A stretch of 64,000 bases of DNA from Candidatus Marinacidobacterales bacterium (lineage in GTDB: Bacteria; Acidobacteriota; Vicinamibacteria; Marinacidobacterales; SMYC01), in assembly GCA_965250115.1 (NCBI GenBank), contig CBDFNJ010000001.1, forward strand, positions 1,450,175 to 1,514,174, given 5' to 3'. A model generated the notes under the pieces. The model searched no databases. It was given only the letters and a program-made list of their open reading frames with translations, and was not told the DNA's origin. This document shows positions 25,461-47,405 of this stretch, piece after piece; position 1 is the stretch's first letter, and each line of letters opens with the position of its first letter. The translations under genes were made by a program, and so were the position numbers.

Positions 25461-25727
25461 CTAAGTACTCTCGAGAAGAAGCCGGCGGCGAAGATCCTTT
25501 GCCGTCGCCCGGTGCTTGAAGGCCTTGCTCCCGTTTACGAATAGGACCGGGATATCGTTCTCGAAACGCGACGAAAGCTCGTCGTCGACGGAGATATCCA
25601 CCACGGTGAGCAGGACGCCGAGCCCCTGAGTCGCCTTCTGAAGCGATTCCTTCATCTCGTCACAGAGGTGACAGCCAGGTCGCGACAGGAGTTGGACCTC
25701 GATTCTGGCCCGCGGCGGCTCGATCAT
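25461..25727 (-). CDS. glutaredoxin-like small thioredoxin-fold protein (CxxC = CHLC)
   Basis: An 88-aa ORF with SRPGCHLCDE and VLFVNG, typical of DUF836/glutaredoxin-2-like proteins. Confidence 0.55.
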   Translation of the reverse strand: MIEPPRARIEVQLLSRPGCHLCDEMKESLQKATQGLGVLLTVVDISVDDELSSRFENDIPVLFVNGSKAFKHRATAKDLRRRLLLEST

Positions 25728-31258: not shown

Positions 31259-31452
31259 GATCTAAAACTTCCAGAAACCCTATCGAGCCATGCTAGAGGC
31301 GCGCTCCAAACATTGTCAACTTCAACACTGCTTTGACTTTCCGCGAGAACGCGTGCGACAATGGCTGAAACTCGCTTCCTCCGCGGACGCAAAGTCCGAT
31401 TCGGCACATTTGGGTTTTTATCGCTTCGAAACACCTCGGGGCTGAGCGGAGG

Positions 31453-33883
31453 ATGGATTTTCTCAAGAGCTATCTGCCGGCGCCGGTCGTCGATATCTTC
31501 CTGCCCGTTTTCATCGTCGTCGTGATCGTCGTGATCGTCGCTCTCGTCTATCCGCGGCTCGCCGCGAAGATCAAGGAGACCGGTGCCTGGGACCGCGTCG
31601 TCGACAAGGTAGGCGGCGAGAAGCTCCGGCTCATGCAGTTCGAGCGCGAGATAAGCCGCTTGCAGAAGTCGGGGAATCTCGTCGGCGCCGCGCGCCTCTA
31701 CGAGGAAGCCGAATGGTATCCGGAAGCGATCAATCTATACATAGAAGCCGAAGAGTTCATCACCGCAGGGACGCTCTACGAGCAGCTCGAGCAGTGGGAC
31801 CGTGCCTCCGACATGTACCAGAAAGCCGACGACTGGAAGCGTGCCTCGCGCATGCTCGTCAAAGTCGGAAAGCACGGCGAAGCGGCTAAACACTTCGAGC
31901 AGCACGGCCAGAAGATCGACGCCGCGAAACTGTATCTCGACGCGGGACAATACGATCGCGCTGCCGCGCTCTACGAGGACGTCTCCTAATTTCCCCCAGG
32001 CGGCGAAGTGCTACGAAAAGCTCGGCCAGTACATCAAGGCGGCCGAGAACTACGAACAGCACTGGTCTGCCACGACGTCGGTAGGTGGCAGCGGCCTCAT
32101 CTCCTCGCCCTCCGATCGCGAGGCCAAGGTCGCGTTGCACGCCGGCCAGCTCTACGAAAAGGGCGGTGCTCCCGAACGTGCGGCTGAGCTCTACAAGCGC
32201 GCTGGTCTTTCGAACCAGGCGGCGACGCTCGCCGCCAAAGAAGGGCGTTTCAAAGACGCAGCGGAAATGCTCCTCAAAGAGGAGAAGCTCGAGGAAGCAG
32301 CCGGCATGTTCGAACAGGCCGGCGAGGCCAAGCGAGCCGCGCTTCTGCGTGGCGAGGTGGCCTTTCACCGAGGCGACGCGGCCTTCGCGGCCGACAAGTT
32401 TCTCGAAGGCGGCGACAACCTGCGAGCTGCGGAAATCTACGAATCGATCGGGAACCTGAGCGCCGCTGCGCGCTGCTACGAGGAGAGCGAGGCGCCCATC
32501 CAGGCCGCGAATGTCTACCTGAGAGCCAACGACAAGGACCAAGCGGCGGCCATGTTCGAGCGAGGCCGAGATTTCGAGCAAGCGGCTCGACTCTACGAGG
32601 ATATCGGCACCCTCCCCAAGGCCTCCTCTCTCTACGAACAGAGCGGGCGGCTTTACGAAGCGGGCAAGCTGGCCCACCAGCTCGACGACAACGAACGTGC
32701 GATCGAGCTTCTGCAGCAGATCGACGCAAGCCACGAGCACCACGATTCCGCGACACTCATTCTTTCGCGTCTGTTCATCAAGAAGGACATGCCGGCCCTC
32801 GCGGTGGACAAGCTGCGTCGGCTGCTCGGAGAACAGCAAATCAGCTCGCAGACGCTCAAGCTCTTCTATTGCCTCGGACTGGCTCAGGAGAAGCTTGGCA
32901 AGACGAGTGAAGCGATCGATACGTTCCGCAAGATCATGACGGAGCGCTATGGATACGAAGATGTGGAGCAGCGCATCGCCCGTTTGGGTTCACCGGGGGC
33001 GCCAGATCCCGCACCTCAAGCGCCGACCGCGGCGGAGCTTGCGCAGCCGGCCGTGGCTCCTGCTCCTGCAAGTGCTCCGGCATCCGCTCCAGCCGGGGCG
33101 GCGCCCCGAGCGGCCTCGGCGACCGCCGCTTCTCCGATAGAGCTTGCTGAGGAGCTCGGAAAGGGACTGCTCGGCGTCTCCTACAAGGGGGTCGACACGC
33201 GCAGCGGGCGCCCGGTGGTCGTCAAGCTCCTCCGAGACGACCTGCTCGCGGATCGCGACGTGTTCCAGCAGTTCCTGGCAGAGGCGAAGCTCGCGCGCGG
33301 GCTCGAGCATCCGAGCCTGGTTCGTCTTCTCGGTCTCATCGAGATTCAGGGAAAGAAGGCGGCCGTCAGCGAGTACGTAGAGGGATTCAATTTGACGGCC
33401 TTTCTCGCCAAGAACCAGCGCATCTCTCTCAAACAAGCCGTCGATCTTCTGACCAACCTCTCGGCAGCTCTCGGCTACGCGCACGAGCGCCGTTTGCTCC
33501 ACCGGCACCTCAAGCCGGCGAACATCCTCGTCGCGGGAGGAGGCAAGCTCAGGCTTACCGGTTTCGGGCTCGGAGCCCTTCGGCTCCCCAATTTGGGCCG
33601 CGCCGATGGCTATCCGTCCCCCGAGCTCTTAAGCGGGTCGCCCGTCGACCCGAGGTCGGACATCTACTCCTTGGGCGCCGTGATCTTTCACGCGTTGACT
33701 GGATTCCATCCAGATAGCGAGCAACTGTCTCAGAACGGAGCTTCGGCGCGCCTGAAACAAGTCTTGCCAGAGGCACCGGAAGCGCTCGACCAGATTCTCG
33801 CTCGCTGCCTCATGAAGAATCCTGCCGAGCGTTTCGGCTCTACGAACGAGATCGCCGACGCCGTACGGACCGTGCAAATCTGA
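31453..33883 (+). CDS. membrane-anchored repeat protein with C-terminal Ser/Thr pseudokinase domain (apparent +1 frameshift at ~31987)
   Basis: It has an N-terminal TM helix. Its ~27 tandem 13-aa repeats (AAxxYExxGxxxx) span the ORF1/ORF2 junction, with the repeat register preserved if one T at ~31987 is skipped. A Pro/Ala linker follows. The kinase fold has Gly-loop LGKGLLGVSYKG and Lys VVVK, but HRHLKPAN (HRD to HRH) and GFG (DFG to GFG). Confidence 0.6.
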
Positions 33884-33955
33884 ACATCTCCCGAGCAGCT
33901 TGACGCCGCAACCGCTCCGCTCGAAACAGCATGATAGGATCCCGTCCCGGTTGGA

Positions 33956-34627
33956 ATGACGGTCATGTCGAACACGTGCTGGTCCTGCCAGAAGGTCAAA
34001 GGCAAAAGGGCTTGTCCCGCGCGCGGGGACGAGCTCATCTGCTCGCGATGCTGTGGGACGAAGCGCGGCGTCGAGATCCGATGTCCGAGCGGTTGCCCCT
34101 ATCTCCGCGGAGGCCACGACGCGAAGTGGGAATCCGCCGCCCAGCAGAAAGAGGAAACACGTTTCTTGAGTCACTTCCTGGGCCTTCAGGACCGGGAGGC
34201 GGCCTTCCTGTTCTTCGTGCACCATCTGATCCTCCAGGCAGGCGGACGGCTCGGAACCCTGTCGGACGGCGGGCTCTCGGACGTTCTGGAGTCCACGCTC
34301 AAGACCCTCGAGACCCGCTCCAAGGGCGTCGTCTATCAGCATACCTGCAGCGCATCGGAGCTTCAGCCACTAGCGAACTGGCTCGTGCAGGTCTTTTCGG
34401 CACGCGGCGAGCTCGCGAACGCGCCAGAGGTGTCGGACGATGACGCGATTCGGGTTCTCGGAACGATGCGCCTCGCGGTGGTGGCCCACGAGCAGCACGC
34501 CTCAGCCCGGAGGACCTATCTGGAGACGGCGGTCCGTGTCATGGGCCCGAGTCTTTCGGATGCACCTGCCATCGAGCTGCCGGAGACAATGAGCTTGCCG
34601 AGCGGCGATCGGATCGTGTCAAGGTGA
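33956..34627 (+). CDS. Cys-rich zinc-ribbon protein (hypothetical)
   Basis: An N-terminal CWSCQK...CP...CSRCCG...CPSGCPY followed by a ~170-aa unknown domain. Confidence 0.45.
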   Translation: MTVMSNTCWSCQKVKGKRACPARGDELICSRCCGTKRGVEIRCPSGCPYLRGGHDAKWESAAQQKEETRFLSHFLGLQDREAAFLFFVHHLILQAGGRLGTLSDGGLSDVLESTLKTLETRSKGVVYQHTCSASELQPLANWLVQVFSARGELANAPEVSDDDAIRVLGTMRLAVVAHEQHASARRTYLETAVRVMGPSLSDAPAIELPETMSLPSGDRIVSR

Positions 34628-34696
34628 GCGCCATCCCGATCGGGTCCAGCAGCTCGACCTACGGTATAATGAAAGAAGTTCCACCTAAATTTCCCT

Positions 34697-36844
34697 GTGA
34701 GCGAGGCGGCCTTGGTCGAGATTAGTCACCGCGAGAGGGTCGTCCGGGCCAAGATTATCTATTACGGCCCGGCGGCTGGCGGGAAGACGACGAATCTAGT
34801 CGTGCTTCATCGCTGTGCCGATCCCAAACGCAGAGGCGAGATGGTATCGGTGAACTCGACGCAGGATCGGACGATCCTTCTCGACCTCTTGCCGATGAAA
34901 ACCCCAGCGTTTCGTGGTTACGACCTCCGCTTTCAGGTCATTGCGGTGCCGGGCCAGCGGATGTATGCGGCGAGCCGCAAACTGCTGCTCAACGGCGCTG
35001 ACGCAGTCGTTTTCGTAGCAAACTCCGCCGCGGACCGGTGGGAAGAAACCATTCAGAGTCTCCGCGAGATGAACCAGAACCTGCTCACGCATGGCCTGGA
35101 CCCTGCGACCATCCCGGTCACGCTGCAGTACAACAAGCGCGATCTTCCGGAGGTCACGCCCATGGAAGTGATGGAGCGCACGCTGAACGCGCGGCGCACC
35201 GCCAGTTTTTCCGCGGTCGCCATCCGCGAAGAAGGCGTTTTGGAAACTTTCGCGGCGGCACTCAAACAGACCATGGAGGACATCACCACGCGATTCAAGC
35301 TCGGCGCCAATACGCGCAACGCTCGCTCCATCGAAGAGTGGACGGCCGAGTCCATGCGCGCGATGTTCGAGTGGTCTCCCGTCGCCGACAACGACCTGAT
35401 GTCCGCGGCCAGCGGAGCCACGGCGCCGTCCACGAGTCGCGAAGCCAAAAACCCATCGACAGCGTCGCCCCCCGCAACGCCGCAACAACATACGCGGGTT
35501 GCCGTCAAAGTGCCGGTGGCACGATCCATCGAAGGCGGCTCTTCGCCGTCGGCAGCTACTCCCGCGAGCGATCCCCAGGCAGCCGAAGCCCTCGTCGACA
35601 GCTACGCCCAGGCGGCCGCCGATCTCACGACCGCGCTCGAGGACATGCGGGACCGACGCGAACTGTCGGAGCAGCGTGCGAAGGATCTCGTCGCTCCCTT
35701 CGACGCGGCACAATCGCTTCTTCGCGGCTCTCCGTCGGACGACGTTCTGCGAACCTTGTTGATGCGCATCGCGGAGAGCCTGGGCGCAGTGAGTAGCTCG
35801 CTGTCTCTCGTGAAAGAGAACGAGCTTCGGCCCGTGATCTTGCTCGGTCTTCAGCGAGAGCCACCGTTCTCAACGGTCGATGGCTCCGGTCGTCCTCTCG
35901 CGATGGGATTGCTCGAAAGCGCGAAGCCTCTGGTTTTCGCCCTCGGGGATCCAGGACCCCTGGGCGACGTTCTGGAGAAGAGCGGCGGCAAGCTCACGTC
36001 GATCGTGGCGATCCCAATCCGAACGCCCGAGGCGACGGTCGGGCTCGCGTGCTTCTACCTCGCGCCCGAGTCCGCATCGCCGCACCCCGAGGCCATCGAT
36101 CATCTAGACCGACTCGGCAACGGGATCGCACTCGTCATCGAGCTCGCCGCCGGGCGCATCGCTCGCGAGCGGCTCGGGCTGAGTGAACGCATGGCGCTAA
36201 CGGGCCGCGTCTCCGAGCAGGCCATTTTGGAGATCGGACCGCCCCTCGACAGACTCTTCGCGACTCTAGGCCGCGTTCGCGCGCAGCAGAATGTGCCCGA
36301 TAGTTTTCTCAACGAATTGAAGGGCATGGGTATGGAGCTGTCCTGCGCCAAGAGGTACCGGGACGCGGTGCTCGGGCTCATGGTGGGACAGCCGCCCGCT
36401 ATGGAGCTCGTGCCGCTCGCGAACGTATTCCACGGGGTTCGGGTTTGGACGGCGGATAGTCTCGAGCGCCACGCGGTGCGCCTCGAAACAACACAGCCCT
36501 CCCCGGGAGACCGCGTGAGGACGGACGCGTTCCTCCTTCGGTCGGCGCTCGCCGCCCTCGTCGAGCGTTCCGAGAACGACTTTGCCGGCCACTCGGGAGG
36601 CTTGATTCGACTTTCGTCGAGAATCGATAACGGGCGCGCCTACATACAAATCGCCGACAACGTTGCCGCGATCCGAAACTCCCGTAACGGAGCGGAAGAC
36701 TACGTCGCCTGGACGCTGAACCGCAACTCGAGAGGCTGGCCTTTGTCTTTCGTCGCGAACGTCGTCGCTTACTCACATGGTCAGTGGACGAACTCGGCGA
36801 CCGAGCACGGAAACGAGCTCACCATGATCCTCTCCGCGCAATAA
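34697..36844 (+). CDS. MglA-like Ras-superfamily small GTPase fused to a ~520-aa C-terminal region (GAF-like + GHKL/HATPase-like)
   Basis: The first ~195 aa align motif-by-motif with MglA: YYGPAAGGKTTN (P-loop), DRT (switch I), AVPGQ (switch II), ADAVVFVANS, QYNKRDLP (G4). The C-terminal region has GAF-like segments and GHSGGLIRLSS / NGRAYIQIADNV, resembling GHKL ATPase boxes. Confidence 0.7.
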   Translation: MSEAALVEISHRERVVRAKIIYYGPAAGGKTTNLVVLHRCADPKRRGEMVSVNSTQDRTILLDLLPMKTPAFRGYDLRFQVIAVPGQRMYAASRKLLLNGADAVVFVANSAADRWEETIQSLREMNQNLLTHGLDPATIPVTLQYNKRDLPEVTPMEVMERTLNARRTASFSAVAIREEGVLETFAAALKQTMEDITTRFKLGANTRNARSIEEWTAESMRAMFEWSPVADNDLMSAASGATAPSTSREAKNPSTASPPATPQQHTRVAVKVPVARSIEGGSSPSAATPASDPQAAEALVDSYAQAAADLTTALEDMRDRRELSEQRAKDLVAPFDAAQSLLRGSPSDDVLRTLLMRIAESLGAVSSSLSLVKENELRPVILLGLQREPPFSTVDGSGRPLAMGLLESAKPLVFALGDPGPLGDVLEKSGGKLTSIVAIPIRTPEATVGLACFYLAPESASPHPEAIDHLDRLGNGIALVIELAAGRIARERLGLSERMALTGRVSEQAILEIGPPLDRLFATLGRVRAQQNVPDSFLNELKGMGMELSCAKRYRDAVLGLMVGQPPAMELVPLANVFHGVRVWTADSLERHAVRLETTQPSPGDRVRTDAFLLRSALAALVERSENDFAGHSGGLIRLSSRIDNGRAYIQIADNVAAIRNSRNGAEDYVAWTLNRNSRGWPLSFVANVVAYSHGQWTNSATEHGNELTMILSAQ

Positions 36845-36856
36845 CGAGCGGTCTCG

Positions 36857-37864
36857 ATGCGAGCCCAGGTCATGGTCCTAGGGCCGGTCGAGCGTGAACT
36901 CCGGCTTCACCTCATCGACGACTTGCTGCCCAGTGGGTCGAAGCGCGCTGACGAGATCTCGTGGAGCATCAGCGGTTATTCTCTCGAGCTGGCGGAGCGG
37001 CTTTTCAAGCTCGAGCTCTCGTCCGGACTCATAGCCACTCTGGGCGATACGCCAGAGGATCTACAGATGATCGCGGAGATCCGCAAGCGTGGTGTCCAGA
37101 CCCGCGCCATCCAACAGGGCGGAGCGGGCCGCATGACGGTTCGCCTACGAACACCGAGCCAATCCATCCAAATCGAGCCCGTAGCGCCCGTTGTGCCCCC
37201 CAAGATGCCGGACGTCGTCTCGGCGCTCAGGCAGGCACGCCATCTCCACGTGTGTCCCGAAAGCTCGCTCTCAGGTCCGGTCCGGCAGCGAAACCTCCAA
37301 GCGCTCACCTACGCTCGGCAATCCGGTCTCTCGACCTCCTTGAGCCTTCCAGATCGGCTGGACGCGCCCCGGCAAATCGACGCGGTGGAACGTGTATCCC
37401 TCCTCTCGGAGGTGGACGTCCTCTTCGCACGGGGCAATGTCCTACGGTCCCTGGCCGGAGAGCGCCGGCTGGCTCGCGCCGTAGACGTCCTCTTCGATTG
37501 GGGGGTTTCCGTCGTGGCGGCCTCGCTGGACGCGGGGGGTGTTCGTATCTACGGACACACCGAGGCGGAAAGGATCCCGAGCTTCGGCAACGAGGTGGCT
37601 TCGCCCGGAGCCGCGTTCGCGAGCGGTTTTTTGCTCGGATGGCTCCTCGGATCGCCCTTGACTTGCTGCGGATTAATGGGCGCGGCCGCCGCGCTCCGGG
37701 GCGAGCGTCACAGGCTCCCCGACCGTCGTAGGGTTTCCGGGCGCCTGGGACGCGCTCGCAGCGCTCCGAGCCTGCGGAGGCTGGTGCCAGATCTGATGGA
37801 GGCCCAGAGGGTTTTGTCGCGGAGGAAGCGATTGCCCCCGCGGTCTCGAGCCCGAGGTGTCTAG
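36857..37864 (+). CDS. PfkB/ribokinase-fold protein with degenerate active site (possible pseudoenzyme); 3' end uncertain
   Basis: The N-terminal beta-clasp pattern (MVLGPVERELRLHLIDDLLPSGSK...) and C-terminal VASPGAAFASGFLLGWLLG resemble the DTTGAGDAF anion hole, but with GAGD replaced. Confidence 0.4.
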   Translation: MRAQVMVLGPVERELRLHLIDDLLPSGSKRADEISWSISGYSLELAERLFKLELSSGLIATLGDTPEDLQMIAEIRKRGVQTRAIQQGGAGRMTVRLRTPSQSIQIEPVAPVVPPKMPDVVSALRQARHLHVCPESSLSGPVRQRNLQALTYARQSGLSTSLSLPDRLDAPRQIDAVERVSLLSEVDVLFARGNVLRSLAGERRLARAVDVLFDWGVSVVAASLDAGGVRIYGHTEAERIPSFGNEVASPGAAFASGFLLGWLLGSPLTCCGLMGAAAALRGERHRLPDRRRVSGRLGRARSAPSLRRLVPDLMEAQRVLSRRKRLPPRSRARGV

Positions 37865-38169
37865 TAGCCTGACGTTGCTCGGTGCCTGAAGCTTCGGCGT
37901 TTGCCGGATTCGTTGCGGCTGGCATAACATGAGCGAGTTAGAGATGGTCCCGTTGGCATCTTTGGCAGGGTGCTGAATAGCGTGTGCACCCTGTGCGACC
38001 GCCTCGCGCAGCGAGCCTGTCGAGCGGAGCGCTAGCCTGGCGAAGCCAGGCGCGTTGCAAAGAAGCAGCGAGCATGGCCCGAATGGGCCGGCCGTCCCCC
38101 CAAAGCGAAGAGCGAGGGGAGCCAACGAGCCGAAGAGGCTCCGTTGGCACTAGAGAGGATTAAGCGTAC

Positions 38170-40989
38170 ATGGGTGAGTCATTTCTCAGACGGGTCTTGT
38201 CTCCCGTCGTGACGTTCCGGGAGGGAGAAGCGGTTACCTGCGTCCTCATGTTCGTCTACTCCTTCCTCGTGATGACCGCTTACAACAACATCAAACCTTC
38301 CGCGGCCTCGAAGTTCATCGCCGATCTCGGCGCCGACAATGTGCCCTATGTGATGCTCATCGCGGGTCTCACGATGGGCTTCATCCTGAACTACTACAGC
38401 CGGGGCCTCACGAAAGTACCCAAGCTCTGGGTGCTTCCCGGAACGCAATTGCTCTTGATCGCCATGCTGGTCGGCTTCTGGTTTCTCTTCCAGACGGGCG
38501 AGGCCTGGCAGGCCTGGATCTCGGCGGCGTTTTTTTTCTTCGGCCGGCTTCTGCTGGGCATCTTTCTCATCAGCCAGTTTTGGACCTTGGCCAACGATAT
38601 CTACGACCCGCGGCAAGCGAAACGGGTCTTCGGATTCATCGGCGGAGGCGCGACCCTGGGAGGCATGACGGGATCGGGCCTCACGGCGCTTCTCGTCAAG
38701 CGGGTCGGCACCGAAAATCTCATCCTGTTCAGCGCGGCGGTGCTCGCCTTATGTTTCTTCCTCATCCTGGAAATTCAGAAAAGAACGAAGCGGGAGGGAG
38801 ATACTGAAGGCTCCTTCGAAGCCAAAGGCAGCACCGTCGGAGGCGGAGAAGCGCTCGCCATGCTGCGAAGCTCCCGGCACCTCAAGCTCATCGCTCTGAT
38901 CATCGGGTTCGGAGCCCTCGGCGCCGCGACGCTCGAGCAACAGCTCTACATGGCTTCCGAGGGCGTCCTCGAGGGACAGGACAGCATCACGAGCTTCCTG
39001 GCCGGCATCACGTTCTACATTTCCCTCATCGGCTTCGTGATTCAGGTTTACTTCACTTCCCGCATCTACAGTCTGCTCGGTATCGGGTTCGCACTTGCCG
39101 TACTCCCGGTGACCCTCGGCGCTACGGCGGTGATGATTCTCACTTACCGCGTGCTCTGGGCGTCCAGCGCGGCTCGAGTAGCGGACAGCGCGCTTCGCTA
39201 CAGCCTCGACAAGACCACGCGCGAAACGCTCTTCCTGCCTTTGCCGACGGAGCTGAAGCTGAAAGCAAAAGGCTTCGTCGACGTCGTCGCGGATCGCTTC
39301 ATTGGCAAGGGCATCGGCTCGGCCATCCTGCTGGTGGCCCTCAAGGTCTTCGACGTCTCCTGGTACCACTTGAGCTTGCTCAGCCTCGTATATTGTGTGC
39401 TGTGGCTCGCTCTGACGCGTCTCGCGAAGAAGGAGTACATGGCCGGGTTCCGGCGCAGCATCGAGACCCTCTCGCTCGAACCGGAGAGGCTCTCACCGGC
39501 GGCGGGCGACGCGGCCACTGTCGAGACGCTCGTCGAGGAGTTGGGGAGCTCGGACGAACGACGGGTTCTGCGCTCGATCGAGCTCCTCGAAGCCCTGGAG
39601 AAGCGAAATCTGATAACGCCTCTGCTTCTGCACCACGCTTCGGCCTCGGTGCGTGCGCGAGCGCTGAGAGCCATCCAGGCAGGCCGGCCCGAGATCGTCT
39701 CTCGGTGGCTCCCGGCCGTGGAGCTCGCGCTAAAGGACGAGGACGGCGACGTTCGCGCCGCGGCAGTGGAGGTCATCGCATCGGCTCGTGCCAGTGGCGT
39801 CCTGGACCTGATGCGAGGCTACCTGCACGACCGCGACCACCGCATCGTGGCAACCGCCGCGATTGCGCTAGCGGAGAGCGACGATGAAGCCGATCGAGTC
39901 GCCGCCTACGACACGCTTGAGCGACTGGCCTCGGATACACGAGGCGCTGCTGCAGCGGCACGCCGTGAAGCGGCGCGCTCCATCGTCCGCACGTCCGACC
40001 CGCGCTTCCGCCACCTCCTCATGCCTCTGATGCAGGACGCGGACCTGAGTGTGGCACGCGAGGCCATTCGAAGCGCTCGTCAGTTGGGCGATGACGATGC
40101 CCTCTTCGTGCCCGCGCTCGTTTCCCTGCTGAGACACCGCAGGCTCAAGAACACTGCCCGGGAAGCCCTCGTCAGCTACGGCGAGACCATCATTCCGACG
40201 CTTACCTACTTCCTCGCGGACGACAACGAGGAACCCTGGGTACGTCGACACATTCCCGAAGTGCTCGCCTTGATTCCAGATCGAGCCTCGGTCGAAGCGC
40301 TTCTCGTCTGCCTGGAGAGCGGCGATGGGTTGCTTCGCTACAAGGCGGTTCAGGCGCTCGAACGAATTCGGCGCATGGACCCGGACCGCGAAATCGACCC
40401 GGAACCGGTCCAGCGACAGCTCTTGAAGGAGGTCGCACGCTACTACCGCTACCTCGGCGCGGGCTATGACCTTTTTGACAAAGGCGGGCTCGCGCGCGAC
40501 TCGCTCGCCGGCCAGGCTTTGCGTGAGAAACTCGAGCGCGGGATGGACCGCATCTGCAGGCTCCTTGGTCTCATCCACTCGTTCCAGGACATCCGTGCGT
40601 CCCGATGGGCAATCGAAAGAGGGGACCCTCGCTCCCGAGCAAGCGCTGTCGAGTTTCTCGACAACACGCTTTCGGGGCAGTTCCGCAAGCTTTTTCTTCC
40701 CCTGGTGGACGACGTACCGCAAGGGGAACGGATTCGGAAGGGTAACGTGTTCCTCAAGACGCGTGTTCGCAGCATCGAGGATACGCTTGCGCGGCTCATC
40801 TACGACGACGACGTCGTTGTGGCCGCCACCGCGATCGACGTGATACGAGAGCAAAAGCTATGGTCGCTCGCGCCGGACCTCGAACAGGTGCTTCAGTTTC
40901 GCGATGCGAAGGACTTCGCGGTCTTCGAGTCCGCCTCCTTCGCGCTCGCGGCCTATCGATTGAGAATGGACGAGCCCCGTGCGATTTGA
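38170..40989 (+). CDS. ATP/ADP-translocase-like (NTT/TLC family) 12-TM transporter fused to C-terminal HEAT/PBS-lyase-type repeats
   Basis: The first ~430 aa are polytopic with NTT-like motifs (FWTLANDIYDPRQAKRVFGFIGGGATLGG). The C-terminal ~500 aa are alpha-helical repeats with recurring E/DxxVRxxAxxAL signatures. Confidence 0.65.
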   Translation: MGESFLRRVLSPVVTFREGEAVTCVLMFVYSFLVMTAYNNIKPSAASKFIADLGADNVPYVMLIAGLTMGFILNYYSRGLTKVPKLWVLPGTQLLLIAMLVGFWFLFQTGEAWQAWISAAFFFFGRLLLGIFLISQFWTLANDIYDPRQAKRVFGFIGGGATLGGMTGSGLTALLVKRVGTENLILFSAAVLALCFFLILEIQKRTKREGDTEGSFEAKGSTVGGGEALAMLRSSRHLKLIALIIGFGALGAATLEQQLYMASEGVLEGQDSITSFLAGITFYISLIGFVIQVYFTSRIYSLLGIGFALAVLPVTLGATAVMILTYRVLWASSAARVADSALRYSLDKTTRETLFLPLPTELKLKAKGFVDVVADRFIGKGIGSAILLVALKVFDVSWYHLSLLSLVYCVLWLALTRLAKKEYMAGFRRSIETLSLEPERLSPAAGDAATVETLVEELGSSDERRVLRSIELLEALEKRNLITPLLLHHASASVRARALRAIQAGRPEIVSRWLPAVELALKDEDGDVRAAAVEVIASARASGVLDLMRGYLHDRDHRIVATAAIALAESDDEADRVAAYDTLERLASDTRGAAAAARREAARSIVRTSDPRFRHLLMPLMQDADLSVAREAIRSARQLGDDDALFVPALVSLLRHRRLKNTAREALVSYGETIIPTLTYFLADDNEEPWVRRHIPEVLALIPDRASVEALLVCLESGDGLLRYKAVQALERIRRMDPDREIDPEPVQRQLLKEVARYYRYLGAGYDLFDKGGLARDSLAGQALREKLERGMDRICRLLGLIHSFQDIRASRWAIERGDPRSRASAVEFLDNTLSGQFRKLFLPLVDDVPQGERIRKGNVFLKTRVRSIEDTLARLIYDDDVVVAATAIDVIREQKLWSLAPDLEQVLQFRDAKDFAVFESASFALAAYRLRMDEPRAI

Positions 40990-41878
40990 ACTGCTTGCTC
41001 CCGTTCCTGCGGTCGCTCTCGCGCAAAAGCTGAGACGCATACCTCTATTCCGATTCGCGTCGGTCGACGAGCTCTTTCGCATCGCCACCATCGCTCGCCA
41101 GGTGCGATACCCCGCTCGAGCCATCGTGCAGGAACGCGGAGCACCGGCGGAGCACCTCCAGGTCCTGCTGGAAGGAAGCTTCGAGCTTGAAGAGCAAGAG
41201 GGCAATAGTCTCCTCGAACCGCCAGCGCTCGTGGGCTTTCAGGAGGTTCTGGAAGGCACGACGATTCGGGCAAGTGCACGGGCCAAGGTCGATTCGATCG
41301 CGCTCGTCATGGCGGCCGAGGAGTTTCGTACGCTGCTCTCGGCGAATATCGAGATCGCGCAGGGATTGTTCCGCTTGCTTCTCGAATCGAGCCGCAATGG
41401 GGCGCGACCAAGTGTCGTCGACGTATCGCGCCTCGAAGACTCGAGCGGCGGAGCTACCCTCAAGACCGTGGACAAGGTCCTCTATCTGCAAGCCATCCCG
41501 ATCTTTGCCCGCGCGGATAGTGACGAGCTCTTCGAGCTAGCCGCGATCACCAAAGATCACGAGCTTCAGCCCAACGCCATCTTGTTCTCCGAGGGCGATC
41601 CTGCTTCGATTCTCGCGCTCCTTTCTGGGGAGATCGAGCTCATGCCAGCTTCAGGAGGCGAATCCTTCCAAGTGGCCGCGGGACAGTGCATCGGCGTCAA
41701 CGAGACCCTCGCGGGAGCCTCGTGGCCGTTCAGGGGACGTGTCACCGAGGCGGGTAGGGCCCTCGATATTCATCGCGAGCTGTTTTTCGAGCTCCTGTCG
41801 GACCGGCTCGACCTGCTGCAAACCATCTTCGGTGCCGTCTTCCAGGGGAAGAAGGCGGAAGAGACCAGCGAAACATGA
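40979..41878 (+). CDS. tandem cyclic-nucleotide-binding (cNMP) domain protein
   Basis: Two CAP-like effector domains (IPLFRFASVDEL...; IPIFARADSDEL...) with a GTG start overlapping the upstream stop. No DNA-binding HTH is evident. Confidence 0.6.
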   Translation: MRFELLAPVPAVALAQKLRRIPLFRFASVDELFRIATIARQVRYPARAIVQERGAPAEHLQVLLEGSFELEEQEGNSLLEPPALVGFQEVLEGTTIRASARAKVDSIALVMAAEEFRTLLSANIEIAQGLFRLLLESSRNGARPSVVDVSRLEDSSGGATLKTVDKVLYLQAIPIFARADSDELFELAAITKDHELQPNAILFSEGDPASILALLSGEIELMPASGGESFQVAAGQCIGVNETLAGASWPFRGRVTEAGRALDIHRELFFELLSDRLDLLQTIFGAVFQGKKAEETSET

Positions 41879-43584
41879 AAAGCCGTATCACGCTGCGACT
41901 TCACCATGCGATCATGCTGTTGCTCGCACTACTGATCTTCGCGACGGCAGACGCGGCTTTCGCAGACGATCCCCAGTGCGAGTGGACCGGGGTCGAGCGG
42001 ATCGTCGCCATCGGAGACATTCATGGCGCTTACGACAACTTCGTCGCGGTATTGAAGAACGCGAAGCTGCTCGACAACAAGCTGAGATGGACCGGTGGGA
42101 AGACCCACCTGGTACAAAACGGCGACATCGTCGATCGCGGCCCTCACTCGCGCAAAGCAATGGAATTGTTGATGAAGCTCCAGGACAAAGCCGAGGAGGA
42201 CGGCGGTCGAGTCCACGTTCTCATCGGCAATCACGAGGCGATGAACGTCGTCGGCATTGTAAATCTCGTTTCAGCCAAAGAGTTCGAGTCCTATACCAAC
42301 GCCGACTCGGCCCAACGACGAGAGTCCACCTTCGATCGCTACTACGAGAACCTTCGTAAGGAGGCCAAGGCAAGAGGCGAAGGGGTTCCCATAAGGAGGA
42401 TTGCCGAGAAGGATTTCAAAAAAAAGTACCCGCTTGGCTACGTCGAGCACCGCCACGCCTTCGGAGAAAGAGGCAAGTATGGAAAGTGGATCCGTCGGCT
42501 GAATGCCGCCGTCAAGATCAACGGGATCGTCTTCTCTCACGGAGACTTCGGTGAGAAATTCTCCGAGATTGGCATCGAAGCCTTGAACCAGCGCGTCCGG
42601 CAGGAGCTCTCTGGTGAAATCCCGCTCGAGGGTGGCTATACCTTCGATGCGGAAGCGCCGCTGCAGTACCGCGGCCTCGCGGAGGTGAACTTGAATCGCG
42701 TCGCTCAAGAGGCAGAGCTCGCGCGAGTGGATCGAATCCTCGCCAAATTGGGTGCGACCCGGATGGTCGTCGGCCACACGTCGACGTCGGGTGTGATCGA
42801 GTCACGTTTCGGGGGAAAACACATCAGTATCGATACGGGTATGCTCGAGCTCTACCGCGGCGGGCATCGCGCCGCCCTCTCGATCGAAGGGGACAGGCTC
42901 GAAGCGATCCACGATCGTGGAGCCGTCGAAATCCCTGAGTGGATGGACGATTCCAACTTCGTGGCCTATGTGAGGGCCGTTTCCGCAGTCGATCCAGAGA
43001 ACGCGGACGCGCAGCTGATCCTCGTCGATTCCTTGCGAGACGATGGAAGCAACGCCGAGGCGGCCACGATTCTCGAAAGCTTGTTGCAAAGGCGGAATTT
43101 GGTACCGTTCCGCTACCGCGAATTTCTCGGCGCTCACTACGAGGCGCGAGGCGAGCTCAAGCGGGCACGTTCCGAGTACCTCGCCTATATCGACGGGCTC
43201 ATCGCACTCGTCAATGCGAACCCCGACAACCTCAACCTCGCCAACCTCCTGGCGCGCTTCTGTATCGAGAAGACGCTGAAGCTGGACCTCGCTGCGGAAG
43301 TCGTCGGGCGCGTCATTGCCGGGTCTCCGGAAAACGAAGGGTTCCAGCTGACTCAGGCCAAGCTTCACCTGGCTCGAAGCGAGTACCAAGAGGCGCGTTT
43401 AGTCCTCGAAAGGATCGCGAAAGGAGAAGGGCTGGACTATGACGTTTACGTCATGACCGGTCGCGCCTACGCGGGGCGGAACGACATCGAAAAGGCACGA
43501 GAGGCGTTCGAATCGGCGCTCCGAATCGAACCGGAGCGGGATGAAGCCAAGACGGAGTTGGAGAAGTTGGGCGGATTACCGTAG
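41875..43584 (+). CDS. secreted calcineurin-like metallophosphoesterase with C-terminal TPR region
   Basis: A signal peptide, then MPE motifs GDIHG, GDIVDRG, GNHE and GHT, then a C-terminal helical TPR-like ~200 aa. Confidence 0.7.
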   Translation: MKSRITLRLHHAIMLLLALLIFATADAAFADDPQCEWTGVERIVAIGDIHGAYDNFVAVLKNAKLLDNKLRWTGGKTHLVQNGDIVDRGPHSRKAMELLMKLQDKAEEDGGRVHVLIGNHEAMNVVGIVNLVSAKEFESYTNADSAQRRESTFDRYYENLRKEAKARGEGVPIRRIAEKDFKKKYPLGYVEHRHAFGERGKYGKWIRRLNAAVKINGIVFSHGDFGEKFSEIGIEALNQRVRQELSGEIPLEGGYTFDAEAPLQYRGLAEVNLNRVAQEAELARVDRILAKLGATRMVVGHTSTSGVIESRFGGKHISIDTGMLELYRGGHRAALSIEGDRLEAIHDRGAVEIPEWMDDSNFVAYVRAVSAVDPENADAQLILVDSLRDDGSNAEAATILESLLQRRNLVPFRYREFLGAHYEARGELKRARSEYLAYIDGLIALVNANPDNLNLANLLARFCIEKTLKLDLAAEVVGRVIAGSPENEGFQLTQAKLHLARSEYQEARLVLERIAKGEGLDYDVYVMTGRAYAGRNDIEKAREAFESALRIEPERDEAKTELEKLGGLP

Positions 43585-43616
43585 CCGGCACCCGCCCACT
43601 TCGATCGCCTCTAAGC

Positions 43617-44703
43617 TGCCTTGGTGCACAACTCCGATAGAGGCCGATAGCTCGCTTGGCCCCGACTCCCATCATCCGATCATCTCGCTATCAGGCATCC
43701 CGAGGGCCGTCATCGTGTTGAGAATCTTGCACCCGATCCTTGCCTCGACTCTCTGTGCCGCCAACCCTCTCGCTCGCATCGCTGAGCCCACGATAGCCTT
43801 GTAGCGATGGAACGTTGTCTCGACTTTGCTCCGTTTGCTGTAGCCCGATTCTGTGTGCCACTTTCGTTTGCCGAGCCGAGCTTGTGCTGCAATGTTGCGA
43901 TTGCGCTGTCGGCTGCTCGCCGGCCCCGATGCGAGCTGGGCGCCCTTGCGCGGCGGTATCAGCACCCTCGGCGAGCGATGAGCGCTGTGATTCTCGATCG
44001 CCTCATAGACGCCGCTGGCGTCGTATGCGGTGTCAGCTCTGGCCGATGAGATGGGACTGTCGATCTGTCCGACAAGCGATGCAACCCGCGATGAATCGCG
44101 GGCTCTTTTGCTCGTCAGCTCGCCGGCGACGACTTCGCCAGTCTGCTCGTCGACACACAGATGGAGCTTGCGATAGTCCCTGCTCTTTGGTGCTCTGCGC
44201 AGCTGGCCGGCGTGGACAGCGAGACCGCTGCTGTCGATCAAGATGTGCAACGGCGTCTTCTGCTTGTCTTGGTAGAAGGGGACCTTACCCAGCTTCGCCT
44301 TGCGCCTCGAAATCGTGGTGTGATCGGGCACATCATTGTCTAGCTTCATCAGAGCGAACAACGATCGCAGCAATCCCTCGCTCTGCCTAGATGACAGATG
44401 AAACACCCTGCCCAGGGTGACAGCCGTCTCGATGGCGTGGTTCGAGTACTTGCGTTGACGGCCCGGTTTCCTCCTCCTCGGCCGGGGCGCGTCCCAGTTC
44501 ACAAGCTTGCCGGCGGTGAGCGAGATCCAGACGGTCAGGCTCCCACGGTTGCGTAGACCCGCCTCATATTCACGCCAACTCCTCACGCGATAGGCCTTCT
44601 TCACATACTTCCGCTGAGTGCGTTTGAAAATGCTCATGGGGAACCTCGAATCCGTGAGTACAGGACAATTGTGGACCGAGATCGCGAGTTGTGCACCAAG
44701 GCA
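43617..44703 (-). mobile_element. IS5-family insertion sequence (~1.09 kb)
   Basis: An 18-bp perfect inverted repeat: TGCCTTGGTGCACAACTC at 43617-43634 and its complement at 44686-44703. It contains a DDE_Tnp_1 transposase. Confidence 0.65.
43672..44637 (-). CDS. IS5-family DDE transposase
   Basis: It begins MSIFKRTQRKYVKKAYRVRSWREYEAGLRNRGSLTVW. The DDE region has LHILIDSSGL... and the C-terminal HTESGYSKRSKVETTFHRYK is typical. Confidence 0.75.
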   Translation of the reverse strand: MSIFKRTQRKYVKKAYRVRSWREYEAGLRNRGSLTVWISLTAGKLVNWDAPRPRRRKPGRQRKYSNHAIETAVTLGRVFHLSSRQSEGLLRSLFALMKLDNDVPDHTTISRRKAKLGKVPFYQDKQKTPLHILIDSSGLAVHAGQLRRAPKSRDYRKLHLCVDEQTGEVVAGELTSKRARDSSRVASLVGQIDSPISSARADTAYDASGVYEAIENHSAHRSPRVLIPPRKGAQLASGPASSRQRNRNIAAQARLGKRKWHTESGYSKRSKVETTFHRYKAIVGSAMRARGLAAQRVEARIGCKILNTMTALGMPDSEMIG

Positions 44704-45218
44704 GTTCTCCAGCAGCAGGTGGCCGAGCTCGACCGCGGCCAACGCTCGGTGACACGGACCGCGCCCCCGACTAATGACCCGACCCACCAGATATTGGCCG
44801 CTTGAACGAGCTGGGCTCGAGACGGTGTTCGCAGAATTACGGGAGCGCGTCGCCAGCGCCCACCGAGGAGGAGCTTGGCCTCTACGAAGGTCTCCCTCTT
44901 TGTTGCTGCCCCAATCGTCTCCAAACCGTCTCCAAAACTGGGGAGGACTCCAGAGGACTCGGGGAGATAGCCCGCCGAAAAAAAAGCCTCAACGGAGTTT
45001 CGATTGCCGCTACTCTGTCAACGCCCCCGTCTTCGCGAGGGCTCTTTAAAGGAGCATGTCCTGCGTTCGACGCGGAGGCTATTTGGACTGATGTCGGCGA
45101 TGCTGGGCCGAGCGTTCTCGTTTAATGGAGTCTCATTAAGTAATGTTGCGGCGTTCCCCGGGTGTTCCCCCAGCGGCAAAACAGACTTCGGCGAGTACCA
45201 GTAAGTGCCTGATTCGAT

Positions 45219-45294
45219 TGGTGAGCCGCGAAGGAATCGAACCTTCAACCTACGGATTAAGAGTCCGTTGCTCTGCCAGTTGAGCTAGCGGCCC
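45219..45294 (-). tRNA. tRNA-Lys (anticodon CTT), CCA encoded
   Basis: The reverse complement GGGCCGCTAGCTCAACTGGCAGAGCAACGGACTCTTAATCCGTAGGTTGAAGGTTCGATTCCTTCGCGGCTCACCA folds as a cloverleaf. The anticodon loop is CTCTTAA. Confidence 0.8.
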
Positions 45295-45313
45295 ACTTTC
45301 AAGGTTTCGTGGC

Positions 45314-45390
45314 TGGTACGCCTGAGAGGATTCGAACCTCCGACCTTCTGCTCCGGAGGCAGACGCTCTATCCAGCTGAGCTACAGGCGC
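45314..45390 (-). tRNA. tRNA-Arg (anticodon CCG), CCA encoded
   Basis: The reverse complement GCGCCTGTAGCTCAGCTGGATAGAGCGTCTGCCTCCGGAGCAGAAGGTCGGAGGTTCGAATCCTCTCAGGCGTACCA has the anticodon loop CTCCGGA. Confidence 0.8.
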
Positions 45391-45455
45391 ATCGCCCGGA
45401 AACGTCGCTCCGGAAGAACGGTAAGAATAGCGGAAGTGGGCTCGTCCCCGCAAGC

Positions 45456-47405
45456 CTAACGTGACACTTGGTGGAGCTCGGGGACGGCCTCCGCCGCTTC
45501 GACACGGGCGATCTCCTCGAGGCTCCCTTCCACCATCCCGTCGAAGAGCCATTCCGACGCGCCGCCGAGGACGCTTTGCGCCAGACGGTAGCCCTCGCGG
45601 TCGACGTTTCTGCCGATCGCGCGGAAGGCTTCGTCGATGCGAAGCCGGGACGTCGCGCAGAAGTGCTCGACGAGCGCCAGGACCTCTTTGCGGTCGACGC
45701 GTTCGTCGATGAGAGCCTGGGCACGAGACGCCGACGCGCACTGGGCGTAGAGCTCGGTTCCGATGTCGACGAAGCGCGCGAGGAGCATTTGCTCGCGCTC
45801 GAGCTTTGACCGGTGCTTCAACATCTGGTGGAACAACTTGCGTGCGAGCTTCTTGCTCGTCTTGCGCACGTAGGCGATGTGCTTCCCGAGCGCTGGATCC
45901 ATCTTCGCCGTGGAGGAGAGAGAGGGAAGCCACTGCTTCGGGTACCAGCGAGCGTAGAAAAGCGCCGCGCGCGCGGCGGCCTTCAATCGTCGCCCGAATG
46001 GGAGCCGCGAGGTCATGACCTCCCCGGCCACGCTCAAGTGCGGGTCCATCGCCTCGCGGGCGATGAAGAGACGCATGATCTCCGTCGATCCCTCGAAAAT
46101 ACGATTGATCCGGGCGTCCCGGAGCGCTCGCTCGATCACGTAGGGCGTCTCGCCGCGAGCTTTCAACGAGGCCGCGGTCTCGTATCCACGGCCACCTAGA
46201 ATCTGCATCGCTTCGTCCGCGATGTGCCACGCGGCTTCGCTGGCGAACATCTTCGTCATGGCCGCCTCGACGCGGATGTCGGTCTTCTTTCGATCGACGA
46301 GAGCGGAGGTGAGGTAGGTCATCGACTCGATCGCGAAGATGGTCGAAGCCATCCTCGCGATTTTGTCGGCGATGGCCGCGTGCTTTCCAATCGGGGCGCC
46401 CCACTGCTCCCTCTCGTTGGCCCAGCGCTTCGCCATTTCGAACGCACGTTTCGAAAGGCCGACGCACATGGCGGGAAGGGTGATCCGCCCCGTGTTGAGC
46501 GTCGTGAGGGCGACTCGAAGCCCCTTGCCTTCCTCGGCGATGATGTTCTCCCGGGGAACTTTGACGTCCGTGAAACGAATGACCGCATTGAAAAGGGCGC
46601 GCAGCCCCATGAAGCGGCATCGGTGGGTAACCTCGACTCCTGGCGTTTTGGTTTCCACGACGAAAGCACTCACCTGACTTCGCTCGCGGCCATTGACGAT
46701 CTTCGACGGGGTCTTCGCCATCACGACGATCAGGCCAGCCACGGTGCCGTTCGTACACCAGAGCTTTTCTCCATTAATAATGAAGTGCTTCCCGTCTTTG
46801 GTCAGCTCGGCTCGAGTCTCGATGCGGGCGGGGTCCGAGCCAACGCCTTTTTCGGTGAGCGCGAAAGCGGAAATCTCGCCTCCGGCGACGCGGGGGAGAA
46901 ACGCACTCTTCTGATCCTCGCTTCCGAAAAGGAGGAGCGGTTGCGGCACGCCGATGGACTGGTGCGCGGACAGCAGCGCGGAGAGGTTCCCGCAATAGCT
47001 TCCGAGCAGGACCGCGGCGCGGGTATAGACCTGCTGGGTCAGGCCGAGGCCTCCGTATTCCCGCGGGATTTTGATGCCGAAAGCGCCGAGAGCGGCGAGC
47101 CCCTGAATGACGTCGTTGGGGATCTCACCGTCCTGATCGATCTGGTTCGGGTCGACGTGCTCACGCAGGAAGGCCTCCATCTGAGCCAGAAACTCACGTC
47201 CGCGGGCGCCTCTGTCCGACGGTCTCTCCGGATAGGGATGGATGAGATCGATCGGCACCTCGCCCATGAAGGGTGCGCCGGCGAACGTCGGGTACTCCCA
47301 GAGACCTTCACGAGAGGCCTCGGTGAGCTCGAGCGCGGCGCGCTTTCCATCGGACATGCCGGTGGTGTCGATAACGGGCTCGTTGTCTCGGTCATGGTTA
47401 CTCAT
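45456..47405 (-). CDS. long-type acyl-CoA dehydrogenase (~650 aa with C-terminal extension)
   Basis: It has the ACAD N/M/C domains (ALTEKGVGSD, the GGRGYETA region, and catalytic-base region IFEGSTEIM). The start MSNHDRDN at 47405 overlaps the tetR stop. Confidence 0.8.
   Translation of the reverse strand: MSNHDRDNEPVIDTTGMSDGKRAALELTEASREGLWEYPTFAGAPFMGEVPIDLIHPYPERPSDRGARGREFLAQMEAFLREHVDPNQIDQDGEIPNDVIQGLAALGAFGIKIPREYGGLGLTQQVYTRAAVLLGSYCGNLSALLSAHQSIGVPQPLLLFGSEDQKSAFLPRVAGGEISAFALTEKGVGSDPARIETRAELTKDGKHFIINGEKLWCTNGTVAGLIVVMAKTPSKIVNGRERSQVSAFVVETKTPGVEVTHRCRFMGLRALFNAVIRFTDVKVPRENIIAEEGKGLRVALTTLNTGRITLPAMCVGLSKRAFEMAKRWANEREQWGAPIGKHAAIADKIARMASTIFAIESMTYLTSALVDRKKTDIRVEAAMTKMFASEAAWHIADEAMQILGGRGYETAASLKARGETPYVIERALRDARINRIFEGSTEIMRLFIAREAMDPHLSVAGEVMTSRLPFGRRLKAAARAALFYARWYPKQWLPSLSSTAKMDPALGKHIAYVRKTSKKLARKLFHQMLKHRSKLEREQMLLARFVDIGTELYAQCASASRAQALIDERVDRKEVLALVEHFCATSRLRIDEAFRAIGRNVDREGYRLAQSVLGGASEWLFDGMVEGSLEEIARVEAAEAVPELHQVSR

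Follow-up and report, generated by a model that had tools for sequence, protein, structure and literature searches.

An NTT-type carrier with a HEAT-repeat arm, a cNBD-fold partner and a putatively exported Shewanella-like phosphatase encoded by one operon of a Vicinamibacteria bacterium

The DNA considered here, hereafter called the window, is a stretch of 64,000 nucleotides (nt) from a Candidatus Marinacidobacterales bacterium (GenBank assembly GCA_965250115.1, contig CBDFNJ010000001.1, positions 1,450,175 to 1,514,174), and its subject is a locus of three consecutive genes, named A, B and C, which is well supported as an operon of a bacterium within the Vicinamibacteria (Acidobacteriota). 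Gene A combines a core of twelve transmembrane (TM) helices of the nucleotide transporter (NTT) type with a HEAT-repeat arm, gene B encodes two domains of the cyclic nucleotide-binding domain (cNBD) fold and gene C a phosphatase preceded by a predicted export signal. A preceding sequence-only reading of the locus had reported three open reading frames (ORFs), their domains and their stop/start overlaps, all of which agree with the coordinates, the + strand, the Pfam matches and the junctions as determined here. The features of the locus are as follows, with lengths given in amino acids (aa).

37901-37930, + strand: promoter-like motif TTGCCG-N18-TAACAT upstream of A, from a DNA alignment of related loci
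38170-40989, + strand: gene A, 939 aa; 12-TM NTT/TLC-like core and HEAT solenoid of ~500 aa
38170-39489, + strand: NTT/TLC-like 12-TM core, residues 1-440 of A, by Pfam, profile-to-PDB comparison, AlphaFold2 and Foldseek
38572-38601, + strand: motif SQFWTLANDI of A, common to NTTs
39196-39246, + strand: motif RYSLDKTTRETLFLPLP of A, common to NTTs
39256-39312, + strand: motif KLKAKGFVDVVADRFIGKG of A, common to NTTs
39490-40989, + strand: HEAT-repeat solenoid, residues 441-939 of A, by Pfam, PDB sequence matches and AlphaFold2
40979-41878, + strand: gene B, 299 aa, GTG start; soluble, two cNBD-fold (CAP-family) domains, no effector domain
41231-41284 and 41681-41716, + strand: non-canonical phosphate-binding cassettes of B, from alignments to MloK1 and PKG
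41875-43584, + strand: gene C, 569 aa; signal peptide, PPP phosphatase and TPR domain
41875-41964, + strand: predicted Sec-type signal peptide, residues 1-30 of C, read directly, with predicted cleavage after AFA
41983-42909, + strand: PPP phosphatase domain of the Shewanella-like phosphatase (Shelph) type, residues 37-345 of C, by motifs and PDB match
42013-42027, + strand: motif GDIHG of C, residues 47-51
42121-42141, + strand: motif GDIVDRG of C, residues 83-89
42226-42237, + strand: motif GNHE of C, residues 118-121
42766-42780, + strand: motif VVGHT of C, residues 298-302, with the Gly-His metal ligand, invariant among the aligned C homologues
42829-42840, + strand: motif IDTG of C, residues 319-322, of the bacterial type (I/L/V)D(S/T)G, invariant in the same alignment
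42982-43584, + strand: TPR domain, residues 370-569 of C, by Pfam TPR_16, TPR_19 and TPR_14

With more than 1,300 homologues of A and more than 1,500 of C found in the database, the genes are considered to be real rather than open frames arising by chance in GC-rich DNA. Direct reading of the junctions placed the GTG start of B 11 nt ahead of the TGA stop of A and revealed that the ATG of C shares the sequence ATGA with the TGA of B, hence forming a 4-nt overlap. These overlaps and the conserved promoter-like motif upstream of A together support co-expression of the three genes. The motif itself looks like a promoter candidate for the operon, as it is kept at the related loci L001, L009, L011 and L013 (related loci being designated by L numbers throughout) and, in a more degenerate form, at L005 and L010; a generic sigma-70/terminator scan missed it and returned nothing useful for the operon. 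The gap between A and the preceding ORF, which resembles PfkB-family kinases, amounts to 305 nt, and the leader lying within it is kept only in the 96%-identical L005. In both the window and L005, about 200 nt of additional 5' leader (within 37931-38169) separate the promoter-like motif from the ATG of A, and between these two points a hairpin, GCCTGGC-GAA-GCCAGGC, is found at 38035-38051 on the + strand. A riboswitch or other leader RNA upstream of A was considered as well and was discarded, as an Rfam search of positions 31000-45500 at E <= 1 identified solely two tRNAs (45222-45390).

The N-terminal core of A was matched by the Pfam family TLC with 43.2 bits (cut-off 21) and by MFS_1 with 38.2 bits, whereby the best TLC stretch spans only profile positions 406-491. 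When a profile of A residues 1-440 was compared with the PDB, significant matches were obtained solely with 9j3n (E 1.6e-16) and 9j3j (E 1.4e-14), the ATP/ADP translocators of Chlamydia pneumoniae and Arabidopsis, with identities to the solved NTTs of ~15% and a confident alignment that is confined to about TM4-TM12. Common to A and the NTTs are the motifs FW..AN(E/D)I, (K/R)Y.L...T(K/R)E...PL and K.K(G/A)K..(I/V)DV...RF. An AlphaFold2 model of A, which was computed from an alignment of 14 sequences and reached a pLDDT of 80 and a pTM of 0.50, comprises 12 TM helices within residues 21-433, and the top Foldseek matches of this model are 9j3n (target-normalised TM-score 0.73, E 4e-8) and 9j3m (0.68). 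Generic members of the MFS were retrieved with similar TM-scores, namely NorA with 0.70 (E 7.1e-5) and SLC19A1 with 0.64-0.65 (E 3.3e-5 to 9e-5), but their E-values are ~1,000-fold weaker than that of 9j3n. Based on these sequence and model comparisons, A appears to be a genuine but distant branch of the NTT/TLC superfamily; with 43.2 bits against the TIGR00769 cut-off of 387.2, it is no equivalog of the characterised exchangers. The assignment of the N-terminal domain to the NTTs and not to a generic MFS, as made in the sequence-only reading, thus holds, given that solved NTTs are both the sole significant PDB sequence matches and the top fold matches. With the class-I ATP/ADP translocators (AtNTT1, CpNTT1; 9j3j/9j3m/9j3n; TC 2.A.12; PF03219) A shares the homologous 12-TM MFS-type core and the motifs, but it is only ~15% identical to them, carries an extra HEAT arm of 500 aa and belongs to a free-living host. 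Mutagenesis of AtNTT1 (Trentmann et al., in 2000) reportedly revealed the charged TM residues K155, E245, E385 and K527 to be needed. We take E385 to correspond to E256 of A, which is nearly invariant, and K527 to correspond to K380, which is invariant, assuming an offset of 84 in the HMMER alignment; K155 presumably maps into a region of A that is unreliably aligned.

The C-terminal part of A was matched by the Pfam family HEAT_2 with 77.2 bits over three stretches and also by Cnd1, and its PDB sequence matches are alphaRep and other HEAT proteins. The fusion of a 12-TM core to about 500 aa of HEAT repeats, which had been read from the translation, was hence recovered, and the structure prediction that was then carried out for the HEAT part modelled residues 448-933 as an all-helical solenoid of ~25 helices with a pLDDT of mostly 80-92. 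Foldseek identified for this solenoid a generic likeness to the PP2A subunit PR65 (target-normalised TM-score 0.39), to alphaRep and to adaptins. Within the homologue alignment, invariant residues are numerous right to the extreme C-terminus of A. A hydropathy and charge count on A fits a central loop rich in Lys and Arg and a cytoplasmic location of both termini. Considering the even number of TM helices, the Lys/Arg-rich central loop and the natural cNBD fusions described below, the HEAT arm is predicted to be cytosolic.

An architecture of this kind is no new oddity, as NTT-HEAT proteins with a following or fused cNBD were published in 2017. Major et al. (2017, Genome Biol Evol, PMC5381601) described the NTT-HEAT fusions as one monophyletic clade which is widespread in free-living bacteria, Acidobacteria included, and which is also found in cyanobacteria, Chlamydia trachomatis, oomycetes and many soil bacteria. 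According to the same work, a cNBD gene is located several nucleotides downstream or an NTT-HEAT-cNBD triple fusion is formed, with repeated events of fusion and fission, and binding of cAMP by the cNBD was proposed (PMC5381601). The NTT-HEAT architecture was found in 120 of 120 A homologues among the matches listed, all of which are at least 51% identical, and genes A and B share with the published clade the NTT core, the C-terminal HEAT part (PF13646, PF02985) and the downstream or fused cNBD (PMC5381601). From this architecture, the inner-membrane protein A and its partner B most plausibly belong to the NTT-HEAT(-cNBD) clade. A later functional study of NTT-HEAT proteins was not found in the searchable literature.

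Gene B was matched by the Pfam family cNMP_binding (cNMP, cyclic nucleoside monophosphate) with 70.1 bits (cut-off 27.5) over two stretches, and its PDB matches are the cNBDs of MloK1 and PKG. It is hence of the same fold family as the CAP/CRP cNBDs (PF00027; MloK1, regulatory domains of PKA and PKG). In the canonical phosphate-binding cassette of these domains, Gly-Glu touches the ribose 2'-OH and Arg-Ser/Thr-Ala touches the cyclic phosphate. Alignments with MloK1 and PKG place Phe at the cassette Glu site of B domain 1 and Ile, variable across the family, at its Arg site, and in domain 2 the PKG alignment places variable hydrophobic residues at both the Glu and the Arg site. A conserved cassette Arg was sought in both domains of 75 B-family members and was found in neither domain, the cassettes of these 75 members reading GFEE.LEG.P...T.A in the first domain and G..ETL in the second. 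Compared with the CAP/CRP cNBDs, B is therefore devoid of the Glu that contacts the ribose and of the Arg that contacts the phosphate, possesses motifs of its own (GFEE..LEG.P, G..ETL) and lacks an effector domain. As the cassette Glu and Arg are missing in both domains, sensing of cAMP or cGMP by B is doubtful; in its canonical form it is ruled out by the cassette residues, and B is likely to respond to some other small ligand or to no ligand. Of the two cyclic-nucleotide-binding domains initially assigned to B, the fold and the absence of an output domain were thus confirmed, whereas binding of cyclic nucleotides was not, owing to the missing contact residues.

Gene C starts with MKSRITLRLHH-AIMLLLALLIFA-TADAAFA/DD, an N-terminus which resembles a Sec signal, and nearly all of the ~100 C homologues inspected carry, ahead of the catalytic domain, a comparable segment in which positive charges are followed by hydrophobic residues; C is accordingly taken to be a putatively exported protein. 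Its catalytic domain was matched by Pfam Metallophos with 50.7 bits and carries the signature motifs of PPP and bacterial PPP phosphatases (PMC535813). The best PDB matches are 1v73, 2zbm and 2z72 (E 2e-26 to 6e-26), i.e., Shewanella phosphatase I/cold-active protein-tyrosine phosphatase, while ApaH was retrieved far more weakly in the same search (E 1e-3); comparison with NCBIfam yielded 33.8 bits for ApaH and 33.9 bits for PrpE. Judged from motifs and matches, C is a PPP phosphatase of the Shewanella-like (Shelph) branch. The originally proposed secreted calcineurin-like phosphoesterase with TPR domain therefore stands as to its domains and, by prediction, its export, and is refined to a Shelph-type PPP enzyme (1v73, E 2e-26). 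With the Shelphs (Shewanella PPI/CAPTPase 1v73, 2z72; plant SLP1/2) C shares GDxHG, GDxxDRG, GNHE, GHT and (I/L/V)D(S/T)G, and it differs from them by the N-terminal export signal, the C-terminal TPR domain of 200 aa and the genomic tie to a membrane carrier. PPP enzymes of the Shelph branch are known as protein or phosphotyrosine phosphatases and not as nucleotidases. C proteins of the window clade possess the TPR domain, whereas their counterparts in the sister lineages of Vicinamibacterales lack it; where present, it suggests protein substrates. A PP2A-like complex of the HEAT arm with the PPP enzyme was considered too and was dismissed on topological grounds, as the HEAT arm is predicted to be cytosolic and C, like nearly all of its homologues, bears an export signal.

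Conservation of the neighbourhood was addressed from both sides. For the forward test, a genome collection was scanned with A as seed, which yielded 80 loci whose ORFs were compared with the window proteins by phmmer; these loci are of Acidobacteriota type only and mostly from Vicinamibacteria, with few filed under Acidimicrobiia, Cyanobacteriota or Bifidobacteriaceae, and all counts based on 57 A-seeded loci refer to those flanked by 3 kb or more on either side. For the reverse test, a metagenome scan seeded on the catalytic domain of C likewise yielded 80 loci. B adjoins A or is fused to it in 56 of the 57 A-seeded loci, the fused form being represented by A homologues of ~1,235 aa (~53% identity) in which B is joined to the C-terminus of A and PF00027 is present. 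B, a separate polypeptide in the window, is accordingly regarded as the dedicated partner of A. In the clade at 62% identity or above, A, B and C occur in the same order and on the same strand in 13 of 16 loci, with L002 and L016 having kept A-B without C. As this clade has also kept the TPR Ser/Thr kinase upstream, a protein of 715 aa and, frequently, the PfkB-like ORF, i.e., the whole block is syntenic, conservation of the trio could there be mere inheritance. A and B form a single fused gene in the Vicinamibacterales clade (~50% identity), where a minority of loci have a TPR-less C homologue nearby. Among the 57 A-seeded loci, 15 have C at a distance of no more than 3 kb from A; seen from C, A/B is no farther than 3 kb away in 7 of 16 C-seeded loci, and no farther than 1.4 kb away in 15 of the 31 flanked by 1 kb or more on either side and in 6 of the 12 flanked by 5 kb or more. 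Taken together, 42 loci with linked A and C were identified in 17 gene-order patterns, of which the commonest (A>B>Ct>, AB>K>C< and A<AB>K>C<, K being the gene described next) account for 24 of the 42, and others (e.g., B<A<C>K< and A<C<A>) for one or two loci apiece, with some contigs ending within a gene. Proximity that is kept through so many arrangements argues for a functional link and against simple inherited synteny. The trio anticipated from the sequence is hence kept among close relatives, and the A-C linkage recurs in other arrangements beyond it. A B-C fusion of the 'Rosetta-stone' type, P0175 (890 aa, PF00027 and PF00149; L006 12783-15467), is annotated in public data as one protein but was dismissed as a probable artefact, and no evidence was drawn from it. 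An out-of-frame Arg/Pro-rich stretch replaces the B C-terminus ahead of the C signal peptide, most likely because the long-read metagenome-assembled genome contains a frameshift or was misassembled at this point. In Vicinamibacterales, a second NTT-HEAT paralogue without cNBD is usually found upstream of, and in divergent orientation to, the NTT-HEAT-cNBD gene (L003 5104-7854, - strand, and most of L020-L084), an arrangement which suggests that the two work as a pair of carriers; the window holds one NTT-HEAT copy.

The linked loci further revealed a recurrent neighbour, K, a protein of ~285 aa whose gene is located between or beside AB and C in many loci (e.g., L003 11907-12791) and which has a homologue in the window.

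9236-10084, - strand: K homologue (PI3/PI4-kinase-like), 28 kb from the operon, phmmer E 3.5e-30 to the L003 gene

The K family is characterised by an N-terminus resembling a signal peptide, from which export of K is predicted, by an invariant Lys within AIFKK (Lys71 in the window protein) and by the motifs DRHLNN (residues 153-158 in the window protein) and LIDNS. Pfam PI3_PI4_kinase matched the window protein with 19.8 bits and the family with 20-25 bits, the cut-off being 27.1. The AlphaFold2 model of the window protein reached a pTM of 0.79, and the top 50 Foldseek matches of this model are all kinases, led by PI4K-II (4wtv, E 3e-4), the secreted CtkA of H. pylori (query-normalised TM-score 0.46-0.51) and MavQ of Legionella. 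All 238 database matches of K are annotated as 'hypothetical' with no recorded Pfam domain, and the family is apparently restricted to Acidobacteriota. In 11 of the 57 A-seeded loci K is located no more than 3 kb from A, and 6 of these 11 are without C. From motifs and model, K would be an exported protein of the PI4K-like kinase fold and is regarded as a putative kinase.

Upstream of A, an ORF at 34697-36844 (+) encodes the 715-aa protein already mentioned, of which the first ~195 residues form an MglA-type small GTPase (PDB 5ymx/6h17, E 3e-43), followed by a low-complexity linker, a region with weak likeness to GAF (17 bits in Pfam, under the cut-off) and a C-terminal portion unassigned to any family. 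This GTPase protein and the TPR Ser/Thr kinase (31802-33883) precede A throughout the window clade, and further upstream an ATPase of the PilB/type II secretion system (T2SS) type is located at 29666-31258 (-), as it is in L001. The PfkB-family kinase-like ORF at 36857-37864 (+; Pfam E 1e-10) ends in an Arg-rich tail and, as judged by eye, reads SPGAAF where the family has its catalytic motif GAGD; at the corresponding position of L001 the source gene caller places a minus-strand gene, and the ORF might be in decay or encode a pseudo-enzyme. Directly downstream of C, an IS5-family transposase is encoded at 43672-44787 (-; NCBIfam 237 bits), beyond which the two tRNA genes are located (45222-45390, -). 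At the equivalent site of L005, which is 96% identical, no ORF of IS5 size and position was found, transposase homology not having been searched there, and the insertion therefore looks recent. A 595-aa ORF at 25724-27511 (-) matches orotidine 5'-monophosphate (OMP) decarboxylase only with residues 371-588, its N-terminal 370 residues being without Pfam match, and may be over-extended or a fusion. Affiliation of the locus with a defence system was considered and rejected, as no meaningful PADLOC result was obtained for A, B, C, K, the GTPase protein or the PfkB-like ORF.

Among the readings of the operon, a gated adenine-nucleotide exchanger which serves phosphate turnover in the periplasm is tentatively favoured, as a possibility that falls well short of probable. 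According to this model, B would dock onto the highly conserved C-terminal end of the HEAT arm and would gate the carrier upon binding of a cytosolic small ligand, which is probably neither cAMP nor cGMP. The carrier would swap adenine nucleotides as its solved relatives do, with cytosolic ATP moving out and ADP and phosphate moving in. Periplasmic ATP might then feed a turnover of phosphate esters by the exported PI4K-like protein K, and phosphatase C might grip protein targets via its TPR domain. Acting together, K and C would turn ATP into ADP and phosphate, i.e., into the counter-substrates of class-I NTTs. Exchange of ATP for ADP and phosphate is preferred because both recurrent partners are predicted to be exported phosphotransfer enzymes; the direction of transport and the adenine-nucleotide substrate of A are assumed by analogy, as is the pairing of ADP with phosphate as co-substrates, which leans on the title of 9j3m ('ADP/Pi bound AtNTT1') and on established NTT biochemistry. 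In eukaryotes, the ATP/ADP exchanger SLC35B1/AXER of the endoplasmic reticulum and Golgi supplies Fam20C-type kinases in a compartment which makes no ATP. The likeness to SLC35B1/AXER and Fam20C is one of functional logic only, the protein families being unrelated and the bacterial case hypothetical. An extension of the model to Vicinamibacteria in general, whereby an extracytoplasmic, ATP-dependent phosphorylation cycle would be sustained by A/B exporting ATP, K writing and C erasing marks on envelope or periplasmic targets, is quite improbable on present evidence.

Uptake or scavenging of nucleotides, as envisaged in the sequence-only reading, would have A import external nucleotides, or dinucleoside polyphosphates after processing by C, with B and the HEAT arm tuning uptake. 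The characterised NTTs all import nucleotides into their own compartment and the nearest solved relatives of A are ATP/ADP translocators; moreover, C bears a weak likeness to the Ap4A hydrolases ApaH and PrpE, whose products (ADP, ATP, AMP) would suit NTTs, and a PfkB-family kinase-like gene precedes the operon directly, both in the window and at 8 of 16 closely related loci. However, C is far nearer to the Shelph protein-tyrosine phosphatase than to ApaH, as the E-values of 2e-26 and 1e-3 document, a nucleotide monoesterase would ruin the carrier's own substrates, the TPR domain hints at protein partners, the PfkB-like ORF apparently has no GAGD catalytic motif, and the recurrent exported kinase-fold neighbour K would be left without a role. 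Given that C is of the Shelph type, a branch known as protein or phosphotyrosine phosphatases, scavenging is a poor fit and is considered unlikely. A signalling device or 'transceptor', in which the NTT-like domain would sense a ligand or move a signalling nucleotide, the HEAT arm and the cNBDs would relay to the cytosol and C would modulate the external signal, draws on the clade-conserved signalling genes upstream (the TPR Ser/Thr kinase and the MglA-like GTPase with GAF-like region), on HEAT solenoids being scaffolds for protein interaction and on the cNBDs of B having, by Pfam, neither enzymatic nor DNA-binding output. These upstream genes are, however, syntenic in the window clade only and not in the Vicinamibacterales loci, and the transport-motif regions common to NTTs, presumably including the equivalents of E385 and K527, are strongly conserved, which argues for a working carrier; this reading is accordingly given slight probability.

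Finally, A and B might form the functional unit on their own, with C kept beside them by synteny only and engaged in some unrelated task in the periplasm. The loci L002 and L016, with A-B and without C, and the joint synteny of T2SS-type ATPase, Ser/Thr kinase, GTPase, A, B and C in the window clade are in line with such a view, and so are the 42 of 57 A-seeded loci in which no C is found within 3 kb of A. Against it, A/B and C adjoin each other in many orders and orientations in lineages that are ~50% identical in A, A/B lies within 1.4 kb in nearly half of the evaluable C-seeded loci (15 of 31), and the 4-nt ATGA overlap suggests translational coupling, for which reasons it is judged distinctly unlikely. 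The favoured gated exchanger, for its part, has several observations to contend with beside these 42 loci. The linkage counts derive from phylogenetically related loci and hence do not represent independent events, and K is located outside the window operon and adjoins (follows) C within the window clade in L014 and L015 only. The periplasm is conventionally held to be free of ATP. The score of A against TIGR00769, the NCBIfam model for NTP/NDP exchange transporters, is 43.2 bits and thus far below the cut-off of 387.2, so that its substrate could differ, and the residue which we take to correspond to E245 of AtNTT1 is not conserved, being Arg (R126) in the window clade and Leu in the fused clade. 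The neighbourhoods of C and K were examined in loci of Acidobacteriota type, whereas NTT-HEAT proteins also occur in cyanobacteria, chlamydiae and oomycetes, and no member of the NTT-HEAT clade has been functionally characterised (PMC5381601).

The presence of NTT, HEAT and cNBD in a free-living bacterium is known since 2017. What is added here is that the cNBDs are non-canonical, that the phosphoesterase is a putatively exported Shelph PPP enzyme and that, in Vicinamibacteria, a recurrent coupling of NTT-HEAT to presumably exported phosphatase and kinase-fold proteins exists. The locus differs in these respects from the NTT-HEAT clade as described, namely by its non-canonical cNBDs, by the co-operonic Shelph phosphatase and, in its relatives, by the kinase-fold protein; a phosphatase or kinase neighbour is unmentioned in PMC5381601, and a recurrent link of NTT-HEAT to an exported phosphatase or kinase was not found in the searchable literature. 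Even under a conservative reading, the absence of the cNMP-contacting residues from B redirects the hunt for the regulator of these carriers, and the reproducible link to a predicted exported phosphatase and kinase-fold protein provides a testable hypothesis for at least one NTT-HEAT branch. If periplasmic supply of ATP were true, the textbook view of a Gram-negative periplasm without ATP-driven chemistry would be overturned. Likewise, an extracytoplasmic phosphorylation cycle, if true, would be a bacterial counterpart of the nucleotide supply in the eukaryotic secretory pathway and would give the NTT-HEAT clade a function.

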